A stretch of DNA of 64,000 nucleotides, from IMG/VR virus record IMGVR_UViG_3300017931_000006; one strand, 5' to 3'. Made by a program: the position numbers and the translations under genes. Below the pieces are notes generated by a model. That model saw nothing but the letters and a program-made list of their open reading frames with translations, was not told the DNA's origin and ran no database searches. Positions within the stretch are counted from its first letter, which is position 1. Every line of letters starts with the position of its first letter. Source of the stretch: an uncultured virus (IMG/VR IMGVR_UViG_3300017931_000006) (Duplodnaviria > Heunggongvirae > Uroviricota > Caudoviricetes > Crassvirales). Below, one piece after another: positions 1-29,943 of this stretch.

Positions 1-3000
1 TCTTTTTGAACTCGATTGAACAACATCTGTTCCAAAGAGTCCCTGACGGCTTGTTTTTTCTCAGCAGCCTCTTTCTTAGCCTCCAATTCTTCTTCTGGCA
101 GTCCATACATCTTTACTTCTTCAGCCTTGGCACGCTTATCCATCTCCCTCTTGTCAATCGATTTGGATGCGAATTTCCATAGCCAAGGGAATGAAGCCAG
201 AACAACTTCTTCCGGGGTCTTAGGATAACCCATACCGCCTTGTTTTTGCGATTGCCGTTTAGCCCATTCTTTTACCCATCCGGGATCAACCATGTCAACT
301 ATCTTCTTAACAAATGCCGCCCCTATTTTTTGTTCAATATTAGTTGTGGTGTCACCTTTGCCTTTCAACGCTTCAAACCCCAATTTTGCAAGATTAGGGA
401 AAAATCCATACTGAAGCATATTAGCAAATGGACTCTTGGAAGCGGTCTCCCAGTCTGCTTCTGCATTCTCCCGGAGGATGTCATTTATTGACCCCCAAAG
501 ATCTCCTTTTTTCTCAAGCAAAGCAAGATTATTTCCTACACTACATCCATTCAGAAAACTCTCATAAAATGGAACGTGAAGAGCTAGGTGGCTTATGTTA
601 TGAGTAGTGCCTCCAAAAGTGACATCATAAGAACCATCATCTTTTTTCTTTACTGTATTGTGATGGAAAGCTCCCAGTAAGAATGCGCTCATCCCCATGG
701 ACCCCAGTACGATATTTCTTTGAATGATATCAGCCTGATCCCTGTCAAGATTCTTGGTCCCGTTCCAGATAAAACTTACCAACCCCGGTGCCTGAAGTTT
801 CATGTCTCCGGCAAGATTTCTTTTTCCAACAAGAGCATAAATAAGCCCATATTTGAATGTCAACGCCCTATCGATGTAATTAGAGGGGATCCTTATAATT
901 GGGATCTCAGTCTTTAGCAATGCCCCGGGGACCCCATTCGCCTCTATAAAAGAATTAATACCCTTAACGAATTGGTTTTTGTTCATTAAAATTCCCCAGC
1001 GTCCATATTCTACAGCCATCTGCTTGATCATAAGCCTATTTTCTTCGCGGTTAGGATCGTATTTCTTCAGCTCTTGTAATAACTCATCTCTCCTTGGGTC
1101 AAAGTAATCTAAAGCTTCCATTTTGGCTGATACCTCTTTGGCGTGTTCTAACCTATTGAGTGTTAATTGTTCATGTGCAAAAGCTAGTTCTGCTGTCTTC
1201 AGAAATGACTTCATCCATCCATGGGTTCTCCCCGGGGCCTCAATCAATCCTTTCCCAAGAGACCACTCTTCATAAACATGGGGGTCTCCGTACATAATCT
1301 CATTTATATCGTGACCCTTCATCTGTTGCATAAAATTATCCCATGTGAGATTTTTCCACACTGCTGTGTAATATTTAGCCAGTGAACTCATGTGAACACG
1401 ACCCCATATATCAGCCTTACCGGATACTCCTTTTGGGGTAAGTTGATAAGCTAACTCTTGGGCTGCAACCATAAGGGGCTTTAATATAAACGAATGACCC
1501 AGAACTGCGGCAATTTTTCCAATGGTACTAATGTAAGACAACACAGCGAATCTTTGCAATCTAAACACCCCATTCATAAATCTTTTGGCTAATGGCTGGC
1601 TCTTGGCTAGATCAGCCTGCCTTTCTTCCTTCCATTGGTTGTACCTGAGCGCATAAGATCTCTCAGCTTTCACAAGCTCGTCGCTCTTTTCAAAGACTTC
1701 AGCTTCTTTCTTTAATGTGGTATAGTCTTTATTCTGAAGCTTTTCCTCTATCTGTTTAGTCCTTCTGGCTATATCTTTTATCCTGCGCTCATTGTATTCC
1801 CTTTCGGTAATACCAAGTTCCTTGGCCCTTTTCCGGCCTTCTTCCTTCAATGCTTTTACTGCACCACTGTCACTATCTCTCTCAATAAACGGAGATGATT
1901 TTGAGCTCTTGGAGAGATCCTCAAGTTTAAGCCTCAGCCTAGCCTCTTTCTTCATCTCTCCCATGGCGATCTGGTGTTCGGCCTTTGTTTTGGGTTCATT
2001 ATCCTTTGCATATCCAGTCAGGTGCTCCATGATATCCCTTGCGGTTAACTCAGGAGCCACATCCTTGACGTCTGCCAGTGTTTTATCAATAAGCTCATCC
2101 AGATCCTTCACCCCGGAGCGGCTGTGCTCTCTGGCGATCTCCATGATGTCTTTGATATCTTCGGGATCAAGTTCCTTGGCTTTCTCTGACTCAGCAGAAA
2201 GTTTAACATCACTCTCTGCGCTCATCTTCGGCTTCCTACGCTCTAACATCCTCTGTTTGGCAGCAGCGATACGTTCCTCGGAAGTCTGCTGGCTCTTGGG
2301 TTTTTGCTTGCCTTCTCTTTCGATTACTTCAGAGACTTTCTGGCGTTCTTTTTTAGCAGCCTCTTTCTTTTCGAAGTCAGCCACTTTTTCCCTGAGCTCC
2401 CTGAGCTCTTGAAACCGGCTGCGTACATATTCCTGCTCTTCAGGGGTCAGAGACTCGAGATTCTTAGTAGCTAAATATTCCCTTTCCATCTGGAAGAGAG
2501 ACATCTCGCTGTTAGTGTAAGCTTTTCTAAGTCTGAAGATATTAGAAGCCTCACGGCCTATCATGGCAGCAGCCATATCGTTATCAGATATTTTAGCGTA
2601 CAGGTTGTTAAGATCCGTTTGGAGACCCATGATAGATTTACTATCCTTGGCCAGCCTCATCCTATTTAGGATGTCAATTTCTTCATTACGGAGTTGTGCT
2701 CTGTGGACCAAAAGAACAGCCTCATCCATGACAGATCCGGAGTGCTCGGTAAGCACGCGCCTTGTAACCTCATCCGGTATAAACACCCCATCAGAGATCC
2801 CTTGTTTGGCTTCATTGAACCAATGATCAAGGTCTGTACTCTGTAAAGCGTCTTTCATGTGCTGTAGCGCAGCTACGCCAAACATCTTCTTCTTTTCTGC
2901 TTCTACAACTGCATTCTTGAGCGAAGTCTCGAAATCTATTGGTTTTAAAACGACTTTTTCCCGGGTAGCATCATTAATGATACTCTTGGGAATATTAGGA

Positions 3001-6000
3001 TTCTTTTGTAACACTGCCTCTTTGAAGAGCTCCGCTACTTCTTTGTGCCCCTTCTCTGGATAGTGTTCCTTGAATTTATCGAATCCATCCCGGATCTTAT
3101 TAGTCATATCCTGACGATCACCGGCGCTCATCTCTTCTTTAGAGAACAAAGTCGTTTGACCTGTCTCTTTGGCGATCACAGCAGGATCCTTTTTTCTGAA
3201 AGCTTCAGCTTCTTTGGCATTAAAGAATGAGCCCTTTTCTTCGAAGTTCTTGACAATATTCTTAGAAACATCCCCATAGGACACACCTAGAGCATCTGCC
3301 TTGCCTCCAGCTTTCACGTACATGGCTTTTTCGAAGTACCACAGCGCAGCTTGGATGTCAGCGATAGAAAGATCTATCCCTTTGGCAGAAAGCTTCTTTT
3401 GGGCCTCCTTGAAGGTCTCATATTGCAAAGTTCTGTCGGCTGGGTTATCCGGCATATCCCGGGTCCCCACAGCGTCCTTATAAATAGTATTTCCACTTTT
3501 CTCAGCGTAATGATCTTGAAGTAGTTGTTCTTTAGACTTTCCTTCACCTTCGATGGATAATTGCCCCTGAGAAAGATCTAGAGCGTTTACAGCATTATTA
3601 AATTTCTCCTTGTCTTCGTTAGTAGTTCCTTCTTTAAACCCAACCTTCTGTTCTAATTCTGTTCTGTATCCTCTTTTTATGTAAGCCTTAGCGTGTAATG
3701 TGGCTTCGTGGATAGCATCTTCGTCGCTCAGGTCAGGCTTTCCAATCCACTCTTTAAAAGCCCCCACGCCCTTTACATTACCTTCTTCTCCTAACCCACT
3801 CACTTCACTCAATACAGTTCCACGGTAACGATTGAACGTTCTGGACTCCCAGCGGTCCATGGTAGGCCAGCCTTCGGTTCCCATGAGGTTAGCAAAATAA
3901 ACACCAAGCTTAGGCCCGAATATAGTTACAGCGCGAGGGATCTTGATATGGTCTTCCCAGTCATTCTTGAAATCCCGGCCTTCCTTAGCAGCTTCTTTAC
4001 GGAACTCACTTCCCTTCTTGGTTTCAAGTAGCCAATCAGTCAGTTTACCCATGTCACCATCGAATTCCTTTAGTAAACCATTGATCCTGTCAATATTCTC
4101 ATTGTAAGCCGCGGTTTTATTACTACCCTCTGTTACATAAGGTATTACGCCGTCTTTAGAGTCCCGGTATCTACTGTAAACATCTGCCGCTATCCCTAGA
4201 TTTTTGTAAACTTCAGTCTGGTCACTGGTAATAGCTGTTAACATTGTAAACAAATCGGCAGATCCGTTATCATTATCCTTCAACTCAGGGAATAATTTTG
4301 CGAGGTCCTGAATAGCATGTTGATACTGATGAGTATACCAGCCCAACCCACTCTTATCTGTTCCCCCAAAAGCCTTGACCATGTATTCAACTTCGTCGGC
4401 CATGAACCTAGAGGCTCTTGGTATGGTCTGATGACGGACTTCTTTGTTGTTTTCCAGAACCTTCTCCAGCGTTTCCCCACTCTTACCCTTGGTGCTTTGA
4501 AGTCTACCTTCAATAGACCCATAGCGTTTGTTGTAGTAGTTATTATAGGCTTCATAGATATCCCGAAGGGACCACATCTTCTTTCTCTTCGGAAGCCCGA
4601 TGTCGGCAAAATCTTTAGTGTCTTCAGCAAAACCCCTCAAGCTGAATTTTACTCCTTCTGCATTAGTCACTCCAGCCGGACCAGTCTGTTCATAAACAGA
4701 AGCTGTACTAGCCTTCACAATGTCGGCTATCTCATCATCAGTAAGGTCAGCGCTCTTGCCTATCATATCCTTCAGGGCTCCACGGACAAAATCAAGAAGC
4801 TTCTGCCACAGCCCTTTTTCTGCGTCTGTAAGTGCTTCCTTGTTAACGACTTTCTCGCCAATCTTAGCCATGTACTCTTCAGCCAGCTCGGCCTTACTCA
4901 TGTCGCCTTTATTGAACTGGTCTATGTATAATTTATCAACCGTATCCTTGATTTTATCAAGTCCGACTGAGGAATAAACCTTGTTCAATAGGTTATCTAA
5001 TTCTTTGTGATCAGGAAGCAAAGACCTCAATCCAGCATGAACCCCTTGTTCGTGAACCCATGCGGCTATTGCGGCGTCTTCAGAATGTAGGTTGTCACTA
5101 ACTAGATATATCTGGTGCGTCCTCTGGTCTAGGGCTGCTTTAACCCTACCTTCCCCGGCAGCATCCTGAATGTTCTGAGGTAGGTCTGCTTGAGATTTCA
5201 CTACCTCTACCGGCAGTGAATGAGTGGCTTTCTTAGCCAGATCATTTATGGTCTCCGAGATCTTATTGTGCTTATCTGCACTGAGAGGCGTATTGGTTAA
5301 TCCCAATGAAGCATTAAGAGCATCAAGCTCGGCCTGAGCTTCAGGTTTTAGTTCTACTTTTGCTTCGGCTTTGTCGAACTCTTTGGCTCTGCGGATCGCC
5401 TCGTCGAGAATCCCACGAATCTCTGTCCCTTTTTCCGGGTGCTCGGCTTTGATAGACTGAAGTAACTCGGTTCTCCTATCGGGATCGACGTATCTGGACT
5501 CGAGTGCGTGTCTTTCTGCTTGTTCTGTGGCTGTTCCATTTTCTATTACTTTATTTAAAAAATCTGAAACCTTATCGTTAAATTCGGTATCCTTACCATT
5601 CTCAATATCAACGATTTGAATAGTTCCCGTAGATTCATTATAAGTAGCATCATTGATCCCGGCTTTCTTCAGTGCATTTATGGCTTTCTGGGCGTCACCA
5701 ACCTTTACTTCTATCTCGATAGCATTCTGATTGGGTTTGTCCCACTCATCCAGATACTCAGCAGCTATGGTAGCCTTCTGGGTTTCCGGGGCACTCGTAG
5801 CCCTAATGAGAGCAGCGAATTTCTCGGCCTCATCAAGAGTAGGCGCGTTAACGTCGATTCTGTTAGAAACTTCCTGACCACCTTCAAATAACCCAATAGT
5901 ATTATCGATCCTATTAACACTGATACCCATAGCTTTAGCCACATTATGAATACTTTCTATGTAGGCTTTGTAATCAGGTCTTTCACGGATCTCAGCAGCT

Positions 6001-9000
6001 TCTTCTGGGCTTGAGATAGACAGATCACGGTAAGGGGCTACAAAAACAGCCCTTACGCTTTCAGGAACTTTATCCGGGAAGGTTTGTTTATGGGCTTCAA
6101 ATGGAGCCTTATCTAATGCTCTGGAGGCTTGATCCGTAAAGTCATTCATGGCCTGCTGGTGAATAAGCTTATCCTCATGGAATGACTTAGTTGTATTATT
6201 TTCGTTTTTATCAGATTCGGCCTTGGCGTCGATATTGTCAGCCAATTCTGTACCCTCATAAAGAGCTAAATTGTAAACATTTGTATGAGAAATGATGTCT
6301 TCGTTAGCCTTGAGAAAATCCATTGTGTGTTGGTAGGTCTCTGGTGTTTCTTCCCAATGAGAGCCATCCGGGTTAATCCCAGAAAATCCAACAACGATAT
6401 TAGGAATAAAGGCTATTTTTTCTTCGCGCAACTTCTTTACAGCAGCATCTATAGTCTTCTCAGAAGCAGGTTTGTGGAGCTTTGCAAGGATCTCATCGTT
6501 ATAAGACTCCACTCCAAGTTCAACGTATTTAATATGTGCCTGTTTTAAGAATTCAGATGAGAATTTTGTAAATTGCCCTGCTGTGGTCTGGATGACAAAT
6601 CCTTGAAAATCAGGATTGGTCTCTATTATTTTATTGTAAATCTCCGGAAGTCTTTTGTAATTAGGAGACTGTCCGAATGTTTTATCATCAAGGTATACCA
6701 GTTTTGCCCCGAGCGCGGCAAGTGATTCTACCTGCCTGTCAATAGCTTCGTCAGGGATTGAGATTATCTCTTTTGGCACAGTGTAGAACGCACACTTAAA
6801 TTTACATCCGGTAGATAATTGGAGTCTGGGTATAACCTGAGTGCCATCGAAATGACGATAAGAAAATCCATACTCATCTGGATGACCATTCTGTTTTGCG
6901 AAGTCACTAATACTATTGTAGATAGAAATATTAGACTTGGTTTTCAGGTTATCAAGATTAGTATATCCTCCGACAGAGATTTTCTGAGATGGATTGTCGT
7001 CGGCAATCTGGGAGATATACTTCTCGTTGATATCTAACGCGCTGAACGCTATGTTTTTATAACCAGACTCTTTGATGAAATTCTGGGCTTCATCCATATC
7101 CCTTACGACATACACATCACTCTTATCAGCGATGGCGGCTATACGAGACATCCATAAAGGGACTTCCCAGAAGTCGAATGTACGATCATAACCCGGGCGT
7201 GTCCGGTAGAGTTTGTCATAATACCTCTCACTTGGATCTGTAGGATCTCTCCTGCCTCCATTTAAAAGATCTGAGGAAAACTGAACCAATAGGGTCCTAT
7301 CAGAATTATCTTCCCCCTTGTCATTTCTGACCCACAAATTCTTACCCTTATCCTTGGGGTTATTTTTCACTGCATCGTCAAAGGTAGCGTTAGGGGTTGT
7401 GACAGAGCTCCCTTTTGGCTGCTTATGTATCTCCGGTGTTAAATCCGGGGCTTTCTCCTGATCCTCATTACGGATATCCCGGTAGAGGGATGCCGCGTCG
7501 TCAAGGGCCTCGGAAAGCGTTTTATTGGCATTCTTGGGTAGGCTCATATTAAAGATGGCCTCTGATGCCACTGCGGAATTTTCTGCCGGTGTGGTCTCTA
7601 CATTGAGCTTATTTACCCGGTATTTAGCCTCGTTCATCAGGTCATCATAGTTGATATCCTGATAGTTAACCTCGTTGACCGGCTTATCCAGAAGCTCTGC
7701 CAATGGTTTTGCCTTGGCACCTCCGAATCTCAGGACCTTGGAATTATCTACAGTTCCATCCCCTTTGAGCTTCAGTGAGTTACCGTCTACCTTCTCTACC
7801 TCATAAGCCCGGTTCTGGTATACTACTGGCTCTTTCTCTTGAGGTGTTGCTCCTTCTTCGCCTGAAACCAGTCGATCACCTTCTTGTGTCGTTTGGCCTG
7901 ACTCAATGGTAGTGGAGGGGTTAATGGTACTTTGTCCTCCGTCTGTACGCTGAACCCGGACTGATCCTTCATTATCTTTGTTTTCATTTAAGTAGTTTAT
8001 TTCTTTGTCAATTATTTCCTGTGCACGATCATAAGATTCTGTTCTTCCCCATTCTTCTCCGTTCTTTGTGATCATAAATTCACTTCCGGGGCCACGTAGT
8101 ATATCCCATCCCGCTTCTGTATTCCTTATTATCTCATTAGCTCTTTTCTCTGCGGCTTCTTTGGAATCAAATTGCCACTGTGAATCTATTCCATCTGGAC
8201 CCCTATCATGGGACACATACCATTTGTCATTATAGACAGTTTTGGCTCTTTTCCCAAATATTTGACCTATAGTAGAAGGCATAACTCTATCACTTCCACG
8301 ATCTACCCATACATAATTATTGTTAGGTAAGGTATAGCCTCCGTGATTTCCGCTAGCCCCCCATGCTAATTTACCTACCGGGGTAATCGTTGGCTCTTCT
8401 GGTTTCTTTTCTGGCTCTGGTTCGGGTGCGGGCGGCTCTTTGAGTACAGGGTAAAGTATATTCTGGGCTTCTTCTTCAGTCAGCTTTTCTCCCTTAGCCT
8501 CGCTGGCTTTCATTAACTCTTGTACTGCTTTCTCTCGGACGGCCTTCTCCTTAGCTACTTCAGAATCGAACTTATCAACAGCCTTTACTTCTTCAGGCGT
8601 CCGGGTCCATGGCTTATCGGACTTATCAAGTCCAGTCTTCAGAGCATTGTAATCAAATTTAGATCCCCTGAGCCTAGTAGCCACATTGGTTCTCTCCCTT
8701 ACATTCAGGTCATTGGCATCGATCCTCTTCTGGGCTTCATTGATAAACTGAGTGTATTTTATGGCTTCAGCAGAGGCCTCATCAGCAGTGTTATAGGTAT
8801 TGGCAAACACTACCTGATTCTGGTCATTAAGAGCCAGTAAATAAGATTTTCCGTTCTCCTGATCCTGCCGGGTTTCTATTCTTGTTGCTCCGGGGATACC
8901 ACCATTCATCATCACCCCTTTAATGGCAAATAAGAGCTTCATCTTCAAGTCCATAGGAACCTCATCACTCTTCATCACATCCATCATTTTATCGGGATGC

Positions 9001-11012
9001 AGGTTGAGACCCTGAATCAATGCCTCAGAAGTAGGAAGTGGTCTCAGCCCTCTTTCTGTCGTTCTCCGGGTCCCGGGGCGCGTGGGCTCATAACCACCAT
9101 AAATAGCTTTTACTTCATCAGGAGTGAAGTCCACATGAAAAAGATCTGTGTTAACTTTGCTGGGATTGAAAGACTTCTCTACAGCCCATTGTAGTCCTTT
9201 TGCGGCAGTTCCTACTACTTCAGGAATCCTCATCACACCAAGGACAGCAGCATTTTCTACAAAGTCTTTAGTGGTAAGATCTTTAAAGTGCTTCTTGGGA
9301 TCAAGAGCTATCCCTCCAAGGGTAAAAGCGCCGACCTCAGCACCGAAACCACCGACTTGAACACCGGTTTGTTCAGCTCTCATAAGAGCTTTTGAAGTCC
9401 CAGCTTCTAGCCCTTTGGAGGCAATAGCGTCCGATAAAGTAGAGGCAACACCGGAGACACCTCCGACAACTGCCCCAAGTGCCATTTGTTTGACACCCTC
9501 TAGAACAATGTTTTTATAATTAAGTCCCTCCCAGCTAATATTAGGATCTGATATCTCCTTTAAAGCTTCAGATGTCGCTCCGTATCCTCCAAGGGATCCG
9601 GCAGTAGCAGCAGCTCTGCGAATAAGATTAGCCATTGGTCCGGACTCAATTCTTTCGGCCAGTTTAGCCACAGCTTGTCTGGCAGCGTCCTTATCCAATC
9701 CCAATTCTATCATCCTGTCTGCTGTTTTCTGGGCTATACGGATTGCGTTCTTTTTTATGAGTGAAGAGGCGACGGCTTCAGTACCTTTACCTCCAGAAAA
9801 AGCACCTATCGACTCTATACCGGTCTGCGCTGCTTTACCTGCTTCAGCCCACTGGGACATTCCCAGCATAGGGCCGGAGTCAATGAGTAATGATAAGAAT
9901 TGTGAAGAAACTTCCTCAAAAGTATTGGGCTTATAATTAAGCATCGGATCGCTGGGGTCCTGAATTATCTTGCCGTTTTTATCGTATTTATAAGCCAACT
10001 CATCCTTAGAAAGTCCTGATTTCAGGAGCATCCCCAACATGGAGTTGTTGACTCCATTGTAAGAGATCCAATCCCATGCCGAGGGCTTGGCCTGCCATCT
10101 GTTCTCGACTTCTTTAATCTGGTTATCTAGATCATCACGCTCTTTTAACATCCCTGCAATCGGAGCTTTGAGCTCTGGCTGATTAGTAGCATCTGCGGTC
10201 TGTGCTATTGCTCCTGCTTTCAATGTAAGCGCAAGGCTTTTACGCTTCATATTGGCAGCCTCGTCTGCGTCAGGAGGTAATTTCTCAAGTTTATCCCCGG
10301 CTTCCCATGCGGCTTGTGGGTCACTGGCATTATGAGCTAAAACTCCCTTATTTGCAAGTAGGTTTGCGTTATTAGGATCTAAAGCCAGAGCTTGATCCAG
10401 ATACTTTGGCGCATTGGGATCGCTAGCGGCTTTTGCGTTTTGATAGAGAAGATTCCAAGAATAGGCGTCATTAGGGTTCTTGCTTATAACGCCAAGTATC
10501 TTTTCATTAGCGCCTTCATAGTCATGGGTTTTCTCGGCTTCTTTAGAAGCTTTATAAATATCACGATGCGGTTGAAGTTTTTGATCAGCCCAGAGCAACT
10601 GCTTTTGTTTGGTTACAGGATCAGTGGGTTTAGTAAGAGATTCTTGATATTCTTGTTCAGACTTAAACGGATGGTTCTCAGCTTTTAACCTATCTTCTGA
10701 GATGCTATTAAAATGAGCCATCTCAAGCCCTCCAGACTTAGTGAGAGACTGTGGATTTAGTGGATCTGCGATATCAGTACGTTCCTTTACCGATCCCGGA
10801 GGTGCCCAGTTACTCTCCTGAGCAACCTTTTCAACAGGCTTAGAGACGGAGGCGTTTCCATCCGGTCCATTTCCATGTTGGGTAGGGGATGGAGAAGGCT
10901 TTTTTTTTAAAATATCGCCCGGTTTGGGGATCTCTCCCGGCCCTAAAGTCTTCAGGACTTCATCGGGCTTCGGGATATCTTTCGCCCCTAATATTTTGTT
11001 GTCGTCGTCCAT
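1..11012 (-). CDS. Giant polyvalent putative virion-ejected protein (>3670 aa, truncated by the left window edge): B12-binding + radical SAM, SAM-lyase-like, MPTase zincin, HhH-GPD glycosylase-like domains
   Basis: ATG at 11012 overlaps the stop of the upstream gene (TAATG). The frame is open in every segment I translated (MDDDNKILGAKDIPKP...EKKQAVRDSLEQMLFNRVQK at the edge). The track lists no terminated long ORF in this frame, consistent with no stop. Motifs: IAFSALD..ISVGGYT, STGCKFKCAFYTVP, VYLDDKTF, VELGVESYNDEIL, HEQGVHAGLR, AEEYMA, GPKLG..NL.G..TMDRW, QAALWY. Confidence 0.9.
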   Translation of the reverse strand, partial: MDDDNKILGAKDIPKPDEVLKTLGPGEIPKPGDILKKKPSPSPTQHGNGPDGNASVSKPVEKVAQESNWAPPGSVKERTDIADPLNPQSLTKSGGLEMAHFNSISEDRLKAENHPFKSEQEYQESLTKPTDPVTKQKQLLWADQKLQPHRDIYKASKEAEKTHDYEGANEKILGVISKNPNDAYSWNLLYQNAKAASDPNAPKYLDQALALDPNNANLLANKGVLAHNASDPQAAWEAGDKLEKLPPDADEAANMKRKSLALTLKAGAIAQTADATNQPELKAPIAGMLKERDDLDNQIKEVENRWQAKPSAWDWISYNGVNNSMLGMLLKSGLSKDELAYKYDKNGKIIQDPSDPMLNYKPNTFEEVSSQFLSLLIDSGPMLGMSQWAEAGKAAQTGIESIGAFSGGKGTEAVASSLIKKNAIRIAQKTADRMIELGLDKDAARQAVAKLAERIESGPMANLIRRAAATAGSLGGYGATSEALKEISDPNISWEGLNYKNIVLEGVKQMALGAVVGGVSGVASTLSDAIASKGLEAGTSKALMRAEQTGVQVGGFGAEVGAFTLGGIALDPKKHFKDLTTKDFVENAAVLGVMRIPEVVGTAAKGLQWAVEKSFNPSKVNTDLFHVDFTPDEVKAIYGGYEPTRPGTRRTTERGLRPLPTSEALIQGLNLHPDKMMDVMKSDEVPMDLKMKLLFAIKGVMMNGGIPGATRIETRQDQENGKSYLLALNDQNQVVFANTYNTADEASAEAIKYTQFINEAQKRIDANDLNVRERTNVATRLRGSKFDYNALKTGLDKSDKPWTRTPEEVKAVDKFDSEVAKEKAVREKAVQELMKASEAKGEKLTEEEAQNILYPVLKEPPAPEPEPEKKPEEPTITPVGKLAWGASGNHGGYTLPNNNYVWVDRGSDRVMPSTIGQIFGKRAKTVYNDKWYVSHDRGPDGIDSQWQFDSKEAAEKRANEIIRNTEAGWDILRGPGSEFMITKNGEEWGRTESYDRAQEIIDKEINYLNENKDNEGSVRVQRTDGGQSTINPSTTIESGQTTQEGDRLVSGEEGATPQEKEPVVYQNRAYEVEKVDGNSLKLKGDGTVDNSKVLRFGGAKAKPLAELLDKPVNEVNYQDINYDDLMNEAKYRVNKLNVETTPAENSAVASEAIFNMSLPKNANKTLSEALDDAASLYRDIRNEDQEKAPDLTPEIHKQPKGSSVTTPNATFDDAVKNNPKDKGKNLWVRNDKGEDNSDRTLLVQFSSDLLNGGRRDPTDPSERYYDKLYRTRPGYDRTFDFWEVPLWMSRIAAIADKSDVYVVRDMDEAQNFIKESGYKNIAFSALDINEKYISQIADDNPSQKISVGGYTNLDNLKTKSNISIYNSISDFAKQNGHPDEYGFSYRHFDGTQVIPRLQLSTGCKFKCAFYTVPKEIISIPDEAIDRQVESLAALGAKLVYLDDKTFGQSPNYKRLPEIYNKIIETNPDFQGFVIQTTAGQFTKFSSEFLKQAHIKYVELGVESYNDEILAKLHKPASEKTIDAAVKKLREEKIAFIPNIVVGFSGINPDGSHWEETPETYQHTMDFLKANEDIISHTNVYNLALYEGTELADNIDAKAESDKNENNTTKSFHEDKLIHQQAMNDFTDQASRALDKAPFEAHKQTFPDKVPESVRAVFVAPYRDLSISSPEEAAEIRERPDYKAYIESIHNVAKAMGISVNRIDNTIGLFEGGQEVSNRIDVNAPTLDEAEKFAALIRATSAPETQKATIAAEYLDEWDKPNQNAIEIEVKVGDAQKAINALKKAGINDATYNESTGTIQIVDIENGKDTEFNDKVSDFLNKVIENGTATEQAERHALESRYVDPDRRTELLQSIKAEHPEKGTEIRGILDEAIRRAKEFDKAEAKVELKPEAQAELDALNASLGLTNTPLSADKHNKISETINDLAKKATHSLPVEVVKSQADLPQNIQDAAGEGRVKAALDQRTHQIYLVSDNLHSEDAAIAAWVHEQGVHAGLRSLLPDHKELDNLLNKVYSSVGLDKIKDTVDKLYIDQFNKGDMSKAELAEEYMAKIGEKVVNKEALTDAEKGLWQKLLDFVRGALKDMIGKSADLTDDEIADIVKASTASVYEQTGPAGVTNAEGVKFSLRGFAEDTKDFADIGLPKRKKMWSLRDIYEAYNNYYNKRYGSIEGRLQSTKGKSGETLEKVLENNKEVRHQTIPRASRFMADEVEYMVKAFGGTDKSGLGWYTHQYQHAIQDLAKLFPELKDNDNGSADLFTMLTAITSDQTEVYKNLGIAADVYSRYRDSKDGVIPYVTEGSNKTAAYNENIDRINGLLKEFDGDMGKLTDWLLETKKGSEFRKEAAKEGRDFKNDWEDHIKIPRAVTIFGPKLGVYFANLMGTEGWPTMDRWESRTFNRYRGTVLSEVSGLGEEGNVKGVGAFKEWIGKPDLSDEDAIHEATLHAKAYIKRGYRTELEQKVGFKEGTTNEDKEKFNNAVNALDLSQGQLSIEGEGKSKEQLLQDHYAEKSGNTIYKDAVGTRDMPDNPADRTLQYETFKEAQKKLSAKGIDLSIADIQAALWYFEKAMYVKAGGKADALGVSYGDVSKNIVKNFEEKGSFFNAKEAEAFRKKDPAVIAKETGQTTLFSKEEMSAGDRQDMTNKIRDGFDKFKEHYPEKGHKEVAELFKEAVLQKNPNIPKSIINDATREKVVLKPIDFETSLKNAVVEAEKKKMFGVAALQHMKDALQSTDLDHWFNEAKQGISDGVFIPDEVTRRVLTEHSGSVMDEAVLLVHRAQLRNEEIDILNRMRLAKDSKSIMGLQTDLNNLYAKISDNDMAAAMIGREASNIFRLRKAYTNSEMSLFQMEREYLATKNLESLTPEEQEYVRSRFQELRELREKVADFEKKEAAKKERQKVSEVIEREGKQKPKSQQTSEERIAAAKQRMLERRKPKMSAESDVKLSAESEKAKELDPEDIKDIMEIAREHSRSGVKDLDELIDKTLADVKDVAPELTARDIMEHLTGYAKDNEPKTKAEHQIAMGEMKKEARLRLKLEDLSKSSKSSPFIERDSDSGAVKALKEEGRKRAKELGITEREYNERRIKDIARRTKQIEEKLQNKDYTTLKKEAEVFEKSDELVKAERSYALRYNQWKEERQADLAKSQPLAKRFMNGVFRLQRFAVLSYISTIGKIAAVLGHSFILKPLMVAAQELAYQLTPKGVSGKADIWGRVHMSSLAKYYTAVWKNLTWDNFMQQMKGHDINEIMYGDPHVYEEWSLGKGLIEAPGRTHGWMKSFLKTAELAFAHEQLTLNRLEHAKEVSAKMEALDYFDPRRDELLQELKKYDPNREENRLMIKQMAVEYGRWGILMNKNQFVKGINSFIEANGVPGALLKTEIPIIRIPSNYIDRALTFKYGLIYALVGKRNLAGDMKLQAPGLVSFIWNGTKNLDRDQADIIQRNIVLGSMGMSAFLLGAFHHNTVKKKDDGSYDVTFGGTTHNISHLALHVPFYESFLNGCSVGNNLALLEKKGDLWGSINDILRENAEADWETASKSPFANMLQYGFFPNLAKLGFEALKGKGDTTTNIEQKIGAAFVKKIVDMVDPGWVKEWAKRQSQKQGGMGYPKTPEEVVLASFPWLWKFASKSIDKREMDKRAKAEEVKMYGLPEEELEAKKEAAEKKQAVRDSLEQMLFNRVQK
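5354..5539 (-). CDS. Possible overprinted small basic protein (61 aa) nested out of frame in the giant gene
   Basis: In the ORF track; ATG preceded by A-rich tttaaataaagtaatagaaa like real starts in this genome. Confidence 0.25.
   Translation of the reverse strand: MEQPQNKQKDTHSSPDTSIPIGEPSYFSLSKPSTRKKGQRFVGFSTRRSAEPKSSTKPKQK
7823..7987 (-). CDS. Possible overprinted small protein (54 aa, MKTKIMKDQSGFSVQTEDKVPLTPPLPLSQAKRHKKVIDWFQAKKEQHLKRKSQ) nested out of frame in the giant gene
   Basis: Hand-translated; start context aaataaactacttaaATGAAA; the giant-protein frame is a low-complexity linker here. Confidence 0.35.
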   Translation of the reverse strand: MKTKIMKDQSGFSVQTEDKVPLTPPLPLSQAKRHKKVIDWFQAKKEQHLKRKSQ

Positions 11013-12355
11013 TAATTACTCTTTTCAAGTTGACTAATTTGTTCATCTGACCAGCCTGCTGCTTTTAGATCAGCCTCCGTTGCCTTTCCTTTCCCCGGGA
11101 TAACGAGATATTGACCGCCTGCCGCCGGTGGAGGTGTTACTTTCTTAGCTGTAGAAGGACTTTTTGGATATGCTTCCCTGATCTCCGGGTGTTTGTTCTC
11201 ATCGATCTTAACAGGAATCGTTTCCGATTTTGTTTCATAATAACCCACATCCCCAGCGTGAGCTGACTTCTTGGGATCAGTAGTCATCTTACCGTTTTTA
11301 TCTCTATACATCTTTGGTTTGGCGCCAGAGTCAACTTCTTCCTTTGAAGGATAGCCCATATTCTTTCTCTTTTCTTCTACAGCATCCTTAGATGTATTGA
11401 TAACCTTGGTGCCTTCCCACACTCGGGAACCATCTGGGTATTGCGTGAAATGAACCAATGTGGTCTTTCCTATACTACCATCCTCATATTTGATATCCAT
11501 GGGCGGTAGTTGTTTGTCTGGAGTGAAGGTAGTGGTCCCGTCTCCATTCTCAACCTTACTCCATCCCTGAGTCTTAGCACTGGCCCCCCCGGTAGGAGGA
11601 AACTTTGAAAAGTCAACACCCTTAGTGGATTCTAGATCTACCTTGTTCTGTATATAAGTAGAACGATTATTACGTCCGTAAAACTTCTGAAGCATGGGAT
11701 TAGTGTCCCAAAGGTTTGCAGCGTCTTCTGCTACCTTCTGAGGAGGATATTCTCCCCGGATTTCATGCAGGGCGCCATCAGGACCCCATTTCCATGAACT
11801 AGAATTGTCTTTAGCCCGATTCCTGTTACTATTGAAGTAGCTCTGCTCCATCTTTATCACTTCCGATGGGGTGTATTGCTCTTGAACTAAAGCCATAGGA
11901 TCTACAGTATTGTCGATAGGATCCTTAGAGGTAGCCCATTTATTAAGAGCGTCTAACGACTCGGGATCAAGTTTGTCTTTAGACTGGAGATCCATGGCTT
12001 TCTTCATGGCAGCTTGATAAGACTCTTGAAGTAATTGAGATTGAGCTACTTTAGTTAATAACATCTTTTTCTTGTCTTCAATGGATCCAAGTTCTTTGTA
12101 GTTTGGATCTTCGTTTCTTTCCTCAGCTTTTGCATATATATCAGCAGCTTCTTTCTTGAATTTATCAGATTCACCAAGCAATTCTTCCCTGTGGTTAGCG
12201 CGTACGCCTTCTAGGGAGATGTCCACAAGCTTCATATAATTATCGATCTGCTGCTGCTTGTGAGCATTCTTGGCCTGCTGAATCTGGGACATGGTTTCCC
12301 CTAAGTTCTGAAGAGCTGGGCCTATGTAATCCGGTGTCTGAAACGAGATTGGCAT
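11012..12355 (-). CDS. Putative internal virion / ejection protein (447 aa)
   Basis: Between tail genes and the giant protein; helical Q/K/A-rich N-terminus; translationally coupled. Confidence 0.6.
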   Translation of the reverse strand: MPISFQTPDYIGPALQNLGETMSQIQQAKNAHKQQQIDNYMKLVDISLEGVRANHREELLGESDKFKKEAADIYAKAEERNEDPNYKELGSIEDKKKMLLTKVAQSQLLQESYQAAMKKAMDLQSKDKLDPESLDALNKWATSKDPIDNTVDPMALVQEQYTPSEVIKMEQSYFNSNRNRAKDNSSSWKWGPDGALHEIRGEYPPQKVAEDAANLWDTNPMLQKFYGRNNRSTYIQNKVDLESTKGVDFSKFPPTGGASAKTQGWSKVENGDGTTTFTPDKQLPPMDIKYEDGSIGKTTLVHFTQYPDGSRVWEGTKVINTSKDAVEEKRKNMGYPSKEEVDSGAKPKMYRDKNGKMTTDPKKSAHAGDVGYYETKSETIPVKIDENKHPEIREAYPKSPSTAKKVTPPPAAGGQYLVIPGKGKATEADLKAAGWSDEQISQLEKSN

Positions 12356-12356
12356 A

Positions 12357-13118
12357 TTAGTTAGCTAAAAATCCAAATCTTGATAAAATATTATTTTTAA
12401 AATCATCATAACTAGAGTTGTCTGAAGAGTTGAAGTTGGCTACGGACTTCTCCCAGATAGCATTAATATCAGGTTTGTTGGCATCAGGATTGGCAACTAA
12501 TGGCGTAGGAGGTGTTGCGGTCTCAGGAGGCGTGGAGTTGTTTTTAAAGAAGCTGCTTAGAATGTCGTTCTGATCTTTCAAATAACTCATCTTTTTGTTT
12601 GAAGCCTCTACGTTGATGGCATTTCCTATACCCTGATTAACAGAGCTCATTAAATCCTTAGTCCCCTGAGCCTTCTGTTCAAACCCCGAAATGTTTTCGT
12701 TGATATTAGCGCCTTGAACACTGAGGTCCATCCCGGCACCATGTTGCAGAGTGTTAATATTTTCTTTTATATTATCCAAATGGACTGACGCCGAGTCTGC
12801 GGCTAATTTGTTGTACATTTCATTCCCTCTGGATATTGCCTCTCCAGCCATGGTTATTACATCTGAAGGGTTTTGGGCTACTTTTCTTGCGCCCTCTAGG
12901 GTTCCTTCTGTCATTGATTTGATATTCTGCTCGTAGAATTTCTCACCCGGGATCCCTTCGTTGGACAACTCATTGGATTTGGTCATCGCAGCTATTTCTT
13001 CCGGGGGCATGTATGTCTTTTGTGACAAGATCTTCCCCGCAAGCTGACTGGATGACAAGTCGCCTGCAACGCCCTGTGCTATGCTAAATATCGCCGCGAT
13101 GGCTGCTATATCGTCCAT
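12357..13118 (-). CDS. Putative internal virion / pilot-like protein (253 aa)
   Basis: Ala/Gly-rich hydrophobic N-terminus then helical region; directly after the muzzle gene as in podovirus layouts. Confidence 0.6.
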   Translation of the reverse strand: MDDIAAIAAIFSIAQGVAGDLSSSQLAGKILSQKTYMPPEEIAAMTKSNELSNEGIPGEKFYEQNIKSMTEGTLEGARKVAQNPSDVITMAGEAISRGNEMYNKLAADSASVHLDNIKENINTLQHGAGMDLSVQGANINENISGFEQKAQGTKDLMSSVNQGIGNAINVEASNKKMSYLKDQNDILSSFFKNNSTPPETATPPTPLVANPDANKPDINAIWEKSVANFNSSDNSSYDDFKNNILSRFGFLAN

Positions 13119-13119
13119 A

Positions 13120-16100
13120 TTACTCTGATATTGTACCGTTAATTTCTACTCCAAACAACTCCACATCGGGATCGTCACACTGGAGCTTATTACTTATAGC
13201 GTGTCCTCTTAGCTTCCTCCCGGTTAGAAGATCTCTTAAACTTTCTTTACCATGGGTGAACATATCCATCAGGTATGCTGCCTTTTGAACTCCTTCTCTG
13301 GTTTTAAACAAAGAAGAATTCAACCTGCTTCGCATTACGCCGCCTTCTGTTGCCACTGAGATATCTCCGGTATTACCGGCTCCCCACATTTGATAAGAGA
13401 ATATTTTTAGAGCATTCCATACCTTTGCTTTGTCTGGCCCCTTATTTCCGATCACAGTCACGATAGCTGGGTATCTTACTCCATAAAATTTATTCTTATC
13501 TGGGCCTACATTATGCTTCCAGATCTCACCACCTATCGAACTCGTCAACACTAATCCATTGGTTGCGTAATGATCAGGGATATATGAAGCAAAGAAATCC
13601 CACGTATCAGTTGGCTCATGGAAAACTACCGTGTCATTATTCGATGGATTTACCCGGTCCACAAATGTAACAATAATGCTTTTATACTCCTTCTCGTAGA
13701 CAGAAAAAACATTAACATTTTCTATCCCTGAAGCTAAAAGAGCTTTGCTTTTTTCACTAAAATAAGTCTCCATCCCGAAATCCCATCCAGTCTCGCTATC
13801 TTTGCCTACAATCTGCTTAATACCATTAGAAGCCCATCTGCAATACACACCATTAAAAATATCAAAGAAATAAGTATGTAGCGCAGATGAAGCCATGCTC
13901 TCCGGGAATACAGTCCCGAGGATCTCAGGGTGCCTCATCAGCCCTCCAATTACTGCATCAGACAATGCCATCACAGAGCCACCGTCGGCTTGTTTTAAAG
14001 AGGTCTTTCCTATGAAAATAGAGATGGGCTGATTCTTCTGAAGAATTCTTAATACATCTCCTACCTCACGCATCCCATATATCTTGTCGTTCTTCTCGGA
14101 CACCTCTCCGCTATTCCCGCTAATAAAAGTAGACAACCCATTAACCAGAGAATCTTGAATATAAAGCAAAGAAAATCTCCACGCGGCTATGTATTCCTTT
14201 CTTTTCATAGCCCGGTTAACCACATTTACTTTTCCTATACTTATATCACTACTTTCAAAAAAATCACAATATGCAGGGTCTTCAACAAGATAATTAGATG
14301 AGCCTGTAATTCTGGTCCTGATATAACAATCGCCCTGAGTAAATACCCCGGAGGCTGGTGTGCTAAGATTAACAGATTGATCTGTAGCCAAAGGACCGTC
14401 TCCCTTTCCATGTCTACAATTAGGAGTATGAGCGTCAAGGATCGGAAGTATTTTATCAAATTGATTATAAATTCCAAGCGTTGCAAGGTTGGATTCCTGC
14501 GGGGTATATACCTGAACGATAATATTCTGCCATCCTGTATAAACTTGTGTCATCAAGGGTACGATTAATTTCAACTTCCCAAGATCAGCAACTTTATTCC
14601 CTTTTTCATCGAGTATAGGGGCTTGATCTTTACTGGAGAGATCCCATTGATAAATGTCCGGACCGGATGGAGGTGTGTAGGGATTGGTTACATCGGTATA
14701 AGTCGTTCCAAGTATTTCTACATCAATGAATTGATCACACAGTTTATAAGTTCCATCATCACCCAAAGAACTCTGCCTGTACAGAATTCTCATCCTATCT
14801 CCCTTCTGCCAGTCATAATTACGAATTGTAGAATTAGGAAACCTATTCGCCATCTTTTGAATAGAGTCATTGAGTTCTATGTAGGTATAAACAGAGTCAG
14901 TGGATATCTCTCCGGGCATGACATGAAATTGCAACCACCATTTAAGCCCGGGAATAAGCAACCACCCGTAATATCTAGCCCATACAGGAGGCTTGTGATA
15001 GATCTCAAACCCCATTTTATATATATATTGCTTGGTGGGGTCAAGAGATTGGCTTATCTCTGTCAATGCTGGTAAATATATCTTAGAGGTGGCATTTTCA
15101 TTGGCGCCCCCGGTACGCATCCCCTCATCGAAATAATGCAGTGCAAATAGTGGCGTAGCACCTGATTTGAACCCAATATCTACTAGGGAGTTGACTGCAT
15201 AAACGTGCATTTTTTGAATACCCCACCAGTTACCGTAGTAATCACCCTCAATCCCAGTCCCATAATACTGCTCCCATGTGAATCGATGAATTCTAAGCCT
15301 TCTATGATAAATTGGATCAGCCCAAGCTATAGGATAATTTCCGGGGACCTGTGGATTAGGGCCGGGGTAATTGTACTGAGGCCACAGATTATTTATTTGG
15401 GTCAAAAGATAGGCAACTACCGAGGCGGTGGTATCTCCCGGCTGAGTTTTATAATATACGGTAAACAACTGACAGTTAGATAAATCAGAACTTACACCTC
15501 CATTCCCAAGAAACTCATGGTTGTAAGGAGGATACCCCGGTCCGGCTGGACTATTCCAATCAGAGGGCCAGTTTACTCCATTAAAAAGATATCGGTATAA
15601 GTCAACACAGACAATTACACCAACAGGAATACCATCGGGAAGATCCACATTGATACCCGAAAAGAACGGAGTCCAATCTCCCGGCCTCCCATCCCATATT
15701 TTGCCATTAGGACCGACTTGGGAAAGAAATTCTAAGAAATCTTTAGTATAATTATTGAAATTTAAGGCAGTCCGTTTAGGAATAAGAGACACGTTGATAT
15801 CAAGATTGTCATAGTTTTCGGTATTATCCGCATAGAGCATCCTGTTTTTTTCAATTAACGCCTGCCTGCCTGCCACCTGCGGAACATTATCATAGGGTCT
15901 AAGAACTTGGTTGACGTCATCCTTTGCGTCTATTACCGTACAAAGATCATCATTGTAAAAATAATAAGTGGTCTGAATGTCGCTATTCATACCCAGCACC
16001 ATATTCCCACCTTCGTCGTATTTGTAAATGGTCCGGAATATATTCCACAGCCCCTTGTTTCCTTCCCTGAACGCGAGCTCTATGCTTACAACCTCCATCG

Positions 16101-17175
16101 GCCCTGTATCGAACTTGACTTTAATCATATTATCTGCATTGTCAAACAAATTGGATAATATATCAAGCATGTTATAAACCGATGGCAGTGGTATATTTGA
16201 TATAGGACTCCAGACAGTAGTTTCGTTATTCACGTAAGTCCACCTGTAGGAGAACTGGAAAAGAGCACCTTGAACGTCTTTTGTATTGTGAGCCGGGTCG
16301 CTATCATAACTACAAATAGGCTGCCGCGAAGGAGGGTATTTCAAGGCAGAAAGAACTTGAAAGTCAATACCATAATACATCTTTGGGTAATACGGAAGTA
16401 TGTATCCTGTAATGGCCCCAGCCCCAGATACATCCCATATCCTACCAGTTACAATATAATTTAGGCCATTTATTTGCCCCAAGGCTTGTATTACTCCATA
16501 ACCTGTGGCTGGCTTTAATCGCTCTCCATAAACGACTCCTTCATTCACCCACGTCACAACTTTGTCGTACAAAGCCCACTGCTGTGTGCCTTTAAAAACA
16601 TAAGCTGTTAATCCGTATTGTTCTAAGTTATGAGTGATGTCGTAAGCGTGAGCCATATAAGCCAATTCCCGCTTTTTAGACCCGTAATACAATTTATAGA
16701 AAGCTATAGCCATCTCCACATCTACTCCCCTAGGGGGATTGAAGTTACTATTTATAAACGATCCAAAGAAGCCATCGGTCCATTTCAGTATTCCCCCGAT
16801 CATGTCCACATGGGAGATCTTGCAATTTAACTGAAAATTCAGATATCTATGTTTTACTACGAGATCAAACTGGTAGCTGTCGCCTTGTGGTATATACCTG
16901 ATTATCTTATGATTATCAGGATTGGGGTTGTACATAAAATAGAAAGTGGCCTGACTCTGGATATCTTCATAGGAACCTATTTCAACATCCCCGGAGTCTT
17001 TGAATGGATTTTTAAGCATGGCCATGCTAAGTATACCTTGCCCCACACCTTCTTTTGGGCCAGAGGTGTTACCATGGCGCAGGTTAAGCTTATACCTGCA
17101 CTCAGTTTCTTTCATCAGACGCTCTTCGACGTCAAGATTCATTTTTCTTGGCAATATGGTCTGACTTACTTTCAA
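13120..17175 (-). CDS. Tail stabilisation / muzzle protein (crAss-like, P22 gp10 / tail tubular B type), 1351 aa
   Basis: N-terminal MNLDVEERLM..YKLN, WTDG..NPPR, FQFSYRW...WSPIS, C-terminal KVWNALKI; follows the ring genes. Confidence 0.8.
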   Translation of the reverse strand: MKVSQTILPRKMNLDVEERLMKETECRYKLNLRHGNTSGPKEGVGQGILSMAMLKNPFKDSGDVEIGSYEDIQSQATFYFMYNPNPDNHKIIRYIPQGDSYQFDLVVKHRYLNFQLNCKISHVDMIGGILKWTDGFFGSFINSNFNPPRGVDVEMAIAFYKLYYGSKKRELAYMAHAYDITHNLEQYGLTAYVFKGTQQWALYDKVVTWVNEGVVYGERLKPATGYGVIQALGQINGLNYIVTGRIWDVSGAGAITGYILPYYPKMYYGIDFQVLSALKYPPSRQPICSYDSDPAHNTKDVQGALFQFSYRWTYVNNETTVWSPISNIPLPSVYNMLDILSNLFDNADNMIKVKFDTGPMEVVSIELAFREGNKGLWNIFRTIYKYDEGGNMVLGMNSDIQTTYYFYNDDLCTVIDAKDDVNQVLRPYDNVPQVAGRQALIEKNRMLYADNTENYDNLDINVSLIPKRTALNFNNYTKDFLEFLSQVGPNGKIWDGRPGDWTPFFSGINVDLPDGIPVGVIVCVDLYRYLFNGVNWPSDWNSPAGPGYPPYNHEFLGNGGVSSDLSNCQLFTVYYKTQPGDTTASVVAYLLTQINNLWPQYNYPGPNPQVPGNYPIAWADPIYHRRLRIHRFTWEQYYGTGIEGDYYGNWWGIQKMHVYAVNSLVDIGFKSGATPLFALHYFDEGMRTGGANENATSKIYLPALTEISQSLDPTKQYIYKMGFEIYHKPPVWARYYGWLLIPGLKWWLQFHVMPGEISTDSVYTYIELNDSIQKMANRFPNSTIRNYDWQKGDRMRILYRQSSLGDDGTYKLCDQFIDVEILGTTYTDVTNPYTPPSGPDIYQWDLSSKDQAPILDEKGNKVADLGKLKLIVPLMTQVYTGWQNIIVQVYTPQESNLATLGIYNQFDKILPILDAHTPNCRHGKGDGPLATDQSVNLSTPASGVFTQGDCYIRTRITGSSNYLVEDPAYCDFFESSDISIGKVNVVNRAMKRKEYIAAWRFSLLYIQDSLVNGLSTFISGNSGEVSEKNDKIYGMREVGDVLRILQKNQPISIFIGKTSLKQADGGSVMALSDAVIGGLMRHPEILGTVFPESMASSALHTYFFDIFNGVYCRWASNGIKQIVGKDSETGWDFGMETYFSEKSKALLASGIENVNVFSVYEKEYKSIIVTFVDRVNPSNNDTVVFHEPTDTWDFFASYIPDHYATNGLVLTSSIGGEIWKHNVGPDKNKFYGVRYPAIVTVIGNKGPDKAKVWNALKIFSYQMWGAGNTGDISVATEGGVMRSRLNSSLFKTREGVQKAAYLMDMFTHGKESLRDLLTGRKLRGHAISNKLQCDDPDVELFGVEINGTISE

Positions 17176-17894
17176 TTCTTAATTGCTTGTGTATATGTGG
17201 ATCTCAGGGCGTCAAGAAACTCCTCTGCGGTGAATCCATTATCCATGCGTTCATATTCATCCCTGAAAATAACAAAATCTTGCCTTGCTTGTTGAATTTT
17301 ATTCTGGGGCCATGTTTTTACCATGTCGTAATCCATGTATACCCAATGCAGATACTTTCTCAGTAATTTGACCATGGCTTGCGGGATATAAGTCTGCCCT
17401 GTTGCACTTATACCCGAAGAGATGTACTGAAGTATCACCGTTCTTCCAATTCCGTCTCCCTGAAAGAATATCCTATGTGTTTTTTTATCTGACCGATAGT
17501 ACATGAAATTATGGCCCCCGGTAGCTCCGTAGGCGGCAACCCAACAGTCATTCTCGATATTGGAAAGCGGGCTCTGCTGATCATCCTTCCCACAGACCAT
17601 GACTATATTGCTGCTTATTTTTTCATTAAGCGTTAGTGTATGAATCTCATTGCCTGCCGGGGTTCCTATCCTGACATAATCTACGAAGTCTGTAGGCCAA
17701 GGTATGCTATTAAGCTTGTCAATGGTCAGCCTAGCTTCTTTAAATAGGCTTGTTGAGTTTATATTAAGGTCTGCATAATTCTCTGCCACTATCTTCAGAA
17801 ACCTTCTCCTGTTAGCCAAAGAATAGATCCCTGTAGCATTCATAAATGAATCTACCACGGAGACAATAGGGACAAATGCAGCAGTGTCTTTCAT
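17172..17894 (-). CDS. Tail ring / tail tubular-like protein
   Basis: PTDFVDYVRIG and ILQYIS.G motifs resemble crAss-like ring proteins; synteny. Confidence 0.65.
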   Translation of the reverse strand: MKDTAAFVPIVSVVDSFMNATGIYSLANRRRFLKIVAENYADLNINSTSLFKEARLTIDKLNSIPWPTDFVDYVRIGTPAGNEIHTLTLNEKISSNIVMVCGKDDQQSPLSNIENDCWVAAYGATGGHNFMYYRSDKKTHRIFFQGDGIGRTVILQYISSGISATGQTYIPQAMVKLLRKYLHWVYMDYDMVKTWPQNKIQQARQDFVIFRDEYERMDNGFTAEEFLDALRSTYTQAIKN

Positions 17895-20006: not shown

Positions 20007-20014
20007 AGTTTTGA

Positions 20015-20704: not shown

Positions 20705-20720
20705 TCAAAAAGTATTTTGC

Positions 20721-20752
20721 TAAAAATACAAAACAGAAGTGCCCTATGTCAA
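20721..20752 (-). promoter_or_regulatory. Bacteroidota sigma-A-type promoter
   Basis: TTGAC-N19-TATTTTTA upstream of the ring gene. Confidence 0.55.
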
Positions 20753-23789: not shown

Positions 23790-23790
23790 T

Positions 23791-24753: not shown

Positions 24754-24778
24754 GGTTGTTCTTTTTAATCTCCGTTAA

Positions 24779-24808
24779 TAAAAGAAGAGTGGAGGCGAAC
24801 CTCCACTC
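24779..24808 (-). terminator. Intrinsic terminator after the major capsid gene
   Basis: GAGTGGAGG-TTCG-CCTCCACTC followed by TTCTTTT on the minus strand. Confidence 0.75.
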
Positions 24809-29939: not shown

Positions 29940-29943
29940 GTAT

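Follow-up and report, generated by a model that had tools for sequence, protein, structure and literature searches.

Why should a giant phage protein carry a radical S-adenosylmethionine (SAM) enzyme whose cluster motif reads CxxxCxxY and not CxxxCxxC? The question is raised by a 64,000-nucleotide stretch of DNA (hereafter the window) from the uncultured virus IMGVR_UViG_3300017931_000006 (Crassvirales), in which a sequence-only reading had recognized a cobalamin-binding radical-SAM domain of class B layout within an ejected virion protein, and had taken the tyrosine to mark either an inactivated SAM/cobalamin sponge, an alternative cluster ligation, or a private mutation or sequence error in an active enzyme. 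It is, in our judgement, quite probable that the window copy is an ordinary member of a large family of phage radical-SAM enzymes, that it lost its third cluster Cys very recently and is dead, and that the module it represents is optional.

The tyrosine itself is present in the DNA. Its codon (TAC, 6783–6785) follows those of C1403 (TGT, 6804–6806) and C1407 (TGT, 6792–6794), and the peptides from which the class B layout had been recognized all lie in one frame of the minus-strand open reading frame (ORF) at 3..11012. The stretch was found, in whole or in part, in 24 runs of 23 peat or wetland studies, which may represent one campaign. Position 6784 was compared in four of the 24 runs, none of them flagged as source, using Logan contigs of depth 5–10; contigs drop rare variants, such that a minority Cys allele could escape this comparison. 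Contigs from runs X3, X4 and X5 span the site with no other letter, and run X12 has no cover at 6784. Tyr is likewise shared by the two proteins of the 90% cluster to which the giant protein belongs, one of which comes from a second assembly (L081) that differs from window positions 1–17349 at 5 of 17,349 bases. These five differences, four of which are coding changes, are either assembly errors or unselected variants; L081 has a stop at codon 159 of a 447-aa ORF (window 11881), and P1341T in the N-terminal domain of the radical-SAM module.

The tyrosine is also private to this phage. Among 184 homologs, the third position is Cys in all 182 proteins that cover the motif, as it is in 77 of 77 viral loci (some of them near-duplicates) and in each of the eight true family members among 15 genome loci, the other seven being weak matches to other radical SAM proteins. 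A degenerate-motif scan of IMG/VR, which was independent of the homology search, returned no locus with the Tyr pattern and 65 with the Cys pattern; as a control, the Tyr-ending pattern does match the window itself. Three of the 65 loci lie on new contigs that were examined, of which one is a family member and two, lacking a profile match, are probably there by chance. These counts agree with a private mutation, and they lend no support to either a sponge conserved in the family or alternative ligation as a family trait.

The rest of the module shows no comparable damage. Of the 57 columns that are conserved at 95% or more across 174 near-full-length homologs, 25 of them without any variation, the window copy breaks only C1410; five of the 174 homologs break another otherwise-invariant column, in no case a Cys. 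The branch to the window copy has a length of 0.25, compared with 0.27 for its sister and a median of 0.33 (0.21 and a median of 0.34 by another estimate). Long-term decay of the module was therefore rejected, the branch not being accelerated and the other conserved columns being intact. Because the relatives all carry Cys, no other damage is evident and the branch is not long, the best reading of the sequences is that Tyr represents a private point lesion of very recent date, and that purifying selection acted on the domain until lately. Two observations qualify this reading. Three runs and two protein records show Tyr as the only allele, which must then be fixed or common and may be under selection; and since the population of this peat phage is nearly clonal, the age of the allele cannot be judged.

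How might this lesion have acted? A single transition, from TGC (the presumed ancestral codon) to TAC on the coding strand, would have removed the third Cys. The ORF contains just three Cys residues (at 1403, 1407 and 3490), two of them inside the module, and thus offers no replacement ligand. With one of the three cluster ligands gone in this way, the [4Fe-4S]–SAM site would be expected from radical-SAM biochemistry not to form properly, which would leave the copy catalytically dead.

That a radical-SAM enzyme of class B layout is fused into a giant virion-type protein is upheld both by a profile match and by fold matches along the whole length of the module. The radical-SAM profile PF04055 matches the window copy (residues 1400–1548, E 6e-9, 36.7 bits against a cut-off of 29.5) and all 92 members of the family alignment. 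The module lies where it had been placed, although its boundaries, 6093–7349, are slightly larger. The window copy has the profile and the partial TIM barrel of the radical SAM superfamily but lacks CxxxCxxC, and it has the N-terminal Rossmann domain before the barrel that is a feature of class B; Q1244, E1283-x-P1285-x-W1287 and G1348 are invariant in this N-terminal domain. An AlphaFold model of residues 1222–1640, made from the 92-row alignment, has a pLDDT of 94.8 and in fold comparisons resembles two-domain Rossmann plus radical-SAM enzymes along its entire length (Z 23.4 for AprD4, 22.9 for MgmA, 20.5 for MiaB, 20.4 for RimO, 17.7 for OxsB and 17.4 for TsrM). On this model, the module has the layout of class B.

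The best match for the fold of the whole module is AprD4 (PDB 6FD2; rmsd 3.4, 357 aligned; Foldseek TMq 0.66), a radical SAM 1,2-diol dehydratase that likewise joins a Rossmann-like N-terminal domain to the barrel. AprD4 shares 16% identity with the module and is an aminoglycoside-pathway enzyme that does without cobalamin, whereas the window module is part of a phage polyprotein and has a broken cluster motif. The class B methylases MgmA (QCMT, 9CCB; tied with AprD4), TsrM, OxsB, TokK, CysS and PhpK (TIGR04479) have the same domain order and fold. In contrast to these enzymes, the window module has no PF02310 match, no extra C-terminal domain and no third Cys, and it falls far under the cut-offs of the NCBIfam class B families (the best being the PhpK family TIGR04479, at 60.7 against 600 bits). 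The fold is also like that of the methylthiotransferases MiaB and RimO (Z 20.4–20.5), and RimO is the best PDB sequence match (E 1.5e-4). MiaB and RimO hold a second [4Fe-4S] cluster by three Cys residues in the N-terminal domain and carry an extra TRAM domain; the window module, with its two Cys residues, lacks the auxiliary-cluster cysteines and ends without such a domain. A second cluster of the MiaB/RimO type was rejected, since the copy has no Cys in its N-terminal domain and the family has no conserved Cys outside the motif.

The sequence-only reading had called the domain cobalamin-binding; what the comparisons bear out is a fold of the B12-binding type, cobalamin binding itself being a possibility. 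For model residues 12–157, the fold comparison gives AerR, MtaC and mutase B12 domains, with Z 9.1–9.7; PF02310, the B12-binding profile, gives weak matches in 11 of 92 family members (best E 0.0012) and none in the window copy. Six of 30 Atlas matches are clusters of B12-binding radical SAM proteins, the best at 0.97, and in one bacterial copy a cobalamin adenosyltransferase gene lies in the same cluster, which hints at B12 use. The fold comparison amounts to a tie between AprD4, without B12, and MgmA, with B12. AprD4 has such an N-terminal domain, yet is described in the accessible text of PMC12931638 as not binding cobalamin.

The intact family is widespread in phages, and its reaction is not known from the literature searched. 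An enzyme of this kind in a virion protein had been called very unusual; this is so for that literature but not for sequence space, where 287 clusters built at 50% identity have a match with E of 1e-30 or lower. Most of the matches listed are large proteins with shuffled cargo (ART-PolyVal, NUDIX, GNAT and LPD domains). Among the viral loci, for which a single-sequence scan gave nothing and an alignment-based scan succeeded, 22 contain a free gene of about 375–550 aa; these free genes form two groups on the tree and often lie among DNA polymerase, primase, RecA or methylase genes. At two loci (L069:9255-11197 and L071:1256-3211) the free gene stands right behind that of a Dam-type (D12) adenine methylase, overlapping it or 13 bp apart, and L069 has a second methylase downstream. 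Four copies are bacterial, and all are found in small-molecule gene clusters: with class II aldolase, aldehyde dehydrogenase, cobalamin adenosyltransferase and nucleoside phosphorylase genes in Aliirhizobium (L087:9929-14866), with aldolase II and phosphorylase genes in Halovulum (L090:3670-6720), and with an APH kinase and an inositol-monophosphatase (IMPase)-family gene in two Saccharimonadales (L089:8938-12127 and L091:8960-12117). The cultured-phage collection contains no member of the family. Our literature search, which left subscription journals outside its coverage, returned no paper on the family and none naming DUF7178, the domain family considered next; the family is not described in the accessible parts of PMC10853773 and PMC13434306.

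One domain recurs with the enzyme. The giant protein contains, C-terminal to the module, a helix-hairpin-helix (HhH) domain of glycosylase fold resembling DUF7178, in which W2225-Y2226, K2368, D2386, Q2554 and W2558 are intact; K2368 and D2386 are kept in 34 of 34 alignment rows. For a model of this domain (pLDDT 72), the 23 best rows of the fold comparison consist of DNA glycosylases, queuine-salvage enzymes and the phage HhH transferase, and the folds retrieved include Ogg, EndoIII, MutY and AlkA proteins. The best match has a Z of 10.0 (rmsd 3.8, 195 aligned), modest for a helical protein, and Foldseek returned nothing for the domain at E ≤ 0.001. A profile match to an archaeal 8-oxoguanine glycosylase/lyase (Ogg; E 0.0036) aligns the invariant Lys and Asp, and model and alignment together suggest an HhH fold with the Lys/Asp pair of the glycosylase/lyases. 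Searches of PHROGs and PADLOC gave no match for either the radical-SAM module or this partner.

DUF7178 is the only frequent neighbour of the free gene, at 8 of 22 loci by BLAST clustering and Pfam and at 10 of 22 by profile; among these ten, six are within 800 bp and two abut (L061, L070). With the iterated profile, the HhH domain was found in 55 of 91 family proteins of at least 2000 aa, in 30 of the 38 above 3000 aa and in 9 of 93 shorter ones, and each of nine other shared blocks occurs in at most 25 of the 91. A complex prediction for the stand-alone L061 pair scored 0.00, gave no verdict and was used neither way. At two loci with a shorter family polyprotein (L024:14389-18762 and L037:1584-4484), the HhH domain is in the neighbouring large ORF. 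The DUF7178 proteins (L061:5982-6584 and relatives H1–H40) have an Ogg-like HhH fold and keep the Lys/Asp pair. Cultured roseo-, cyano- and mycobacteriophages encode them, for the most part under a hypothetical annotation, and in several cultured podoviruses the gene lies near the genome ends. The HhH-fold domain is present in at least 283 giant proteins of 2018–6423 aa and has no Pfam match in this form (window 3153-4505; P0188–P0304).

Seen from the HhH domain, the enzyme comes and goes. Of the 120 giant proteins whose HhH domain is closest, only 3 have the radical-SAM module, and its presence and absence alternate at least 6–8 times on an HhH tree (FastTree, with long branches and a sampling biased by the searches). 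The module appears dispensable because 117 of these 120 proteins lack it and the HhH domain of the window phage nests among them, and the phage may tolerate a dead copy because the module is optional.

What, then, might the intact enzyme do? We tentatively propose, by analogy, that the family uses radical chemistry to modify DNA or a nucleotide, most likely through a cobalamin-assisted methylation, as an optional add-on to the DUF7178/Ogg-like HhH enzyme. The analogy is with phage M6, in whose thymidine hypermodification an HhH-fold transferase (gp51) and a radical SAM isomerase (gp53) are described as acting in series on phage DNA, gp53 being called, in the accessible text, the first example of such an enzyme in phage DNA modification (PMC8989533). 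Both systems pair an HhH-glycosylase fold with a radical SAM enzyme, and the related PaMx11 gp46 is in the fold list of the window partner (Z 7.0). They differ in that gp53 is described there as SPL-like (PMC8989533), no cultured phage matches the window family, neither a 5-hmU kinase nor a PLP enzyme is a recurrent neighbour of that family, and the window partner is closer to Ogg-type glycosylase/lyases, whose Lys/Asp pair it keeps. In the proposed mechanism, SAM would be cleaved to a 5'-deoxyadenosyl radical and DNA or a nucleotide would then be modified; the giant-protein form would be packed in the head and ejected unfolded, and would require refolding and cluster loading from an anaerobic host. 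The modification may serve to shield phage DNA or to disable host defence early in infection.

Several findings pull the other way. The best fold match, AprD4, is a protein that does not bind cobalamin (PMC12931638, accessible text). The link to the partner is one-way: none of 29 independent DUF7178-like loci has the enzyme in the fetched flank (one shares its contig with a polyprotein copy of the family), and 44 phage records have DUF7178 and none the radical-SAM enzyme. No HhH gene is found in the small-molecule clusters of the four bacterial copies, 36 of the 91 large family proteins lack the HhH domain, and the control sets for the base rate are small, with 0 of 7 loci taken on an unrelated gene and 1 of 15 large ORFs that lack the module.

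These findings leave room for the alternative, possible but somewhat unlikely, that the allele is just as dead but the family acts on a small molecule, such as a phosphorylated sugar or nucleoside, by a B12-free elimination like that of AprD4, or drains SAM to counter SAM-dependent restriction, with DUF7178 merely fellow early anti-defence cargo. AprD4, the top fold match, is such a B12-free dehydratase; the bacterial copies lie by class II aldolase and nucleoside phosphorylase genes at two loci and by APH kinase and inositol-monophosphatase-family genes at two others; and DUF7178, common on its own and near the genome ends in several cultured podoviruses, has only the one-way link described above. 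However, the HhH domain occurs twice as often as the next most frequent of the shared blocks tested, it joins the enzyme in many different HhH branches (6–8 label changes) and abuts the free gene in L061 and L070, and the cobalamin adenosyltransferase gene of one bacterial cluster hints at B12 use. Returning to the modification of DNA or nucleotides, a stronger version of that proposal, in which a cobalamin-dependent enzyme and the Ogg-like HhH enzyme together write an undescribed mark, after delivery from the capsid within a giant ejected protein and acquisition of Fe-S and B12 in the host, seems to us rather unlikely.

Other explanations concern the tyrosine itself. One is that the window enzyme is active, with Tyr1410 (or water or sulfide) in place of the third Cys. 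The other conserved positions are intact, Tyr is the only allele seen in the population, and a Tyr does ligate the radical-SAM cluster of Mmp10; in that enzyme, however, it is a fourth ligand and all three Cys residues are retained (PMC12931638). There is no second case in the 182 proteins, the 77 loci or the IMG/VR pattern scan, and no compensating change nearby. Loss of one motif Cys usually kills radical-SAM enzymes, and we regard an active enzyme as improbable. Slightly more improbable still is a dead enzyme retained by selection to soak up host SAM or cobalamin. The copy retains its SAM-contact motifs and its Rossmann domain undamaged, and all assemblies covering the site have the allele, but this allele is confined to one near-clonal population, and a very recent lesion predicts intact motifs anyway. 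Furthermore, SAM binding in the radical-SAM fold leans on the cluster iron, the few copies in a virion could presumably bind little of the cellular SAM, and B12 binding is putative.

It is extremely improbable that the Cys is restored in the transcript or during translation. Editing of A to I at UAC would give UIC and hence a Tyr-to-Cys change, but the context, UUC-UACA-CU, is not the UACG/YUACGAA loop that TadA needs according to the accessible text of PMC12255301, and the target A is predicted to lie in a stem; none of the 24 runs with the stretch is recorded as an RNA run. Codon reassignment is excluded, since TAC also encodes the conserved Tyr1269, Tyr1440 and Tyr1560 and the window has no tRNA gene. 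A sequencing or assembly error in an active enzyme, the remaining option of the sequence-only reading, deserves equally little credence: the codon is one base from Cys and was seen in contigs, not raw reads, but TAC recurs in three runs, each from a different study and none flagged as source, and in an assembly that differs elsewhere.

The protein that carries this module (P0309, 3713 aa in full and identical to the window part across 3670 aa) is encoded by the last gene of the structural module (Table 1). The gene order is that of Elemovirus, namely terminase, portal, capsid-like, ring-like genes, a 1351/1493-aa protein, two small genes and a giant protein, the last of these being a 3694-aa "structural protein" in Elemovirus; the two small genes of the window, between the muzzle-like gene and that of the giant protein, are ORFs of 253 and 447 aa. 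Gundel_1 (Pachyviridae) has a similar gene order, and the window terminase is closest to those of Flavobacterium and Cellulophaga phages (26% identity). Together with these terminase relatives and this gene order, the annotation suggests that the phage is probably a Bacteroidota podovirus and the giant protein an internal virion protein; its description as ejected would, in turn, derive from gene order shared with annotated "structural protein" genes.

Within the giant protein, the HEQGVH...EEYMA motif, which we take to be zincin-like, may belong to a metallopeptidase of the polyvalent-protein type; this region (aa 1987–2049) has no Pfam or PDB match, and an HExxH tally across proteins was too unspecific and was left unused. 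The first 1000 aa have no match in the cultured-phage collection. Like the phage polyvalent proteins (Iyer et al. 2017, PMC5512222), the window protein is a giant protein of the virion region that joins unrelated domains (radical-SAM, HhH, zincin-like and TPR) at the end of the structural module, and its family relatives share ART-PolyVal, LPD, GNAT and NUDIX domains with those proteins. The words "radical", "cobalamin", "B12" and "glycosylase" do not occur in the main text of that article.

Elsewhere, the window contains two GroES (Cpn10) genes, at 41694-42599 (+) and 43401-43727 (-), one GroES forming the C-terminal part of a 301-aa protein; Elemovirus likewise has two. A recombination/replication block at 56229-61490 (+) includes a topoisomerase-like PHROG match, an SbcC-like ATPase and a hydrolase of metallo-beta-lactamase fold.

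Table 1. Positions of the giant protein, its domains and the structural genes in the window.
Feature	Position	Strand	Residues and basis
Giant multi-domain protein, last gene of structural module	3..11012	-	3670 aa in window; open at window edge
DUF7178-like helix-hairpin-helix glycosylase-fold domain	3153..4505	-	About aa 2170-2620; iterated profile, E 2e-51
Zincin-like HEQGVH...EEYMA motif	4866..5054	-	aa 1987-2049; read from sequence
Radical-SAM module	6093..7349	-	aa 1222-1640; Rossmann-type N-terminal domain and partial TIM barrel
PF04055 radical-SAM core	6369..6815	-	aa 1400-1548; YxDDKTF, ExGxESxN and PNIVVG motifs intact
Cluster motif C1403-K-F-K-C1407-A-F-Y1410	6783..6806	-	Tyr where the family has Cys
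N-terminal Rossmann domain, B12-binding-domain type (by fold)	6879..7301	-	About aa 1238-1378
TPR repeat	10305..10400	-	aa 205-236; PF13431, E 4.9e-7
Upstream structural module	11012..40734	-	PHROG matches, synteny
Muzzle-like protein	13120-17175	-	Weak crAss_MUZ_C match
Capsid-like	24825-26243	-	Structural module; PHROG matches to the module
Portal	27376-29823	-	Structural module; PHROG matches to the module
Terminase	38500-40734	-	Structural module; PHROG matches to the module

As a private lesion, CxxxCxxY has little to teach by itself, and the family behind it is of more consequence; should the enzyme pair indeed write a new mark, the Tyr allele would in effect be that system's natural catalytic knock-out. 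The HhH-fold domain represents a large, hitherto unannotated polyvalent-protein domain, and DUF7178 gains a fold assignment, that of the Ogg-like HhH proteins. Through the recurring HhH partner and the small free genes (about 390 and 200 aa), an untestable giant protein gives way to a system of two genes, open to expression and assay. This strongly conserved radical SAM enzyme of class B layout occurs in hundreds of uncultured phages, either inside virion-type polyproteins or encoded by a gene of its own next to replication genes.

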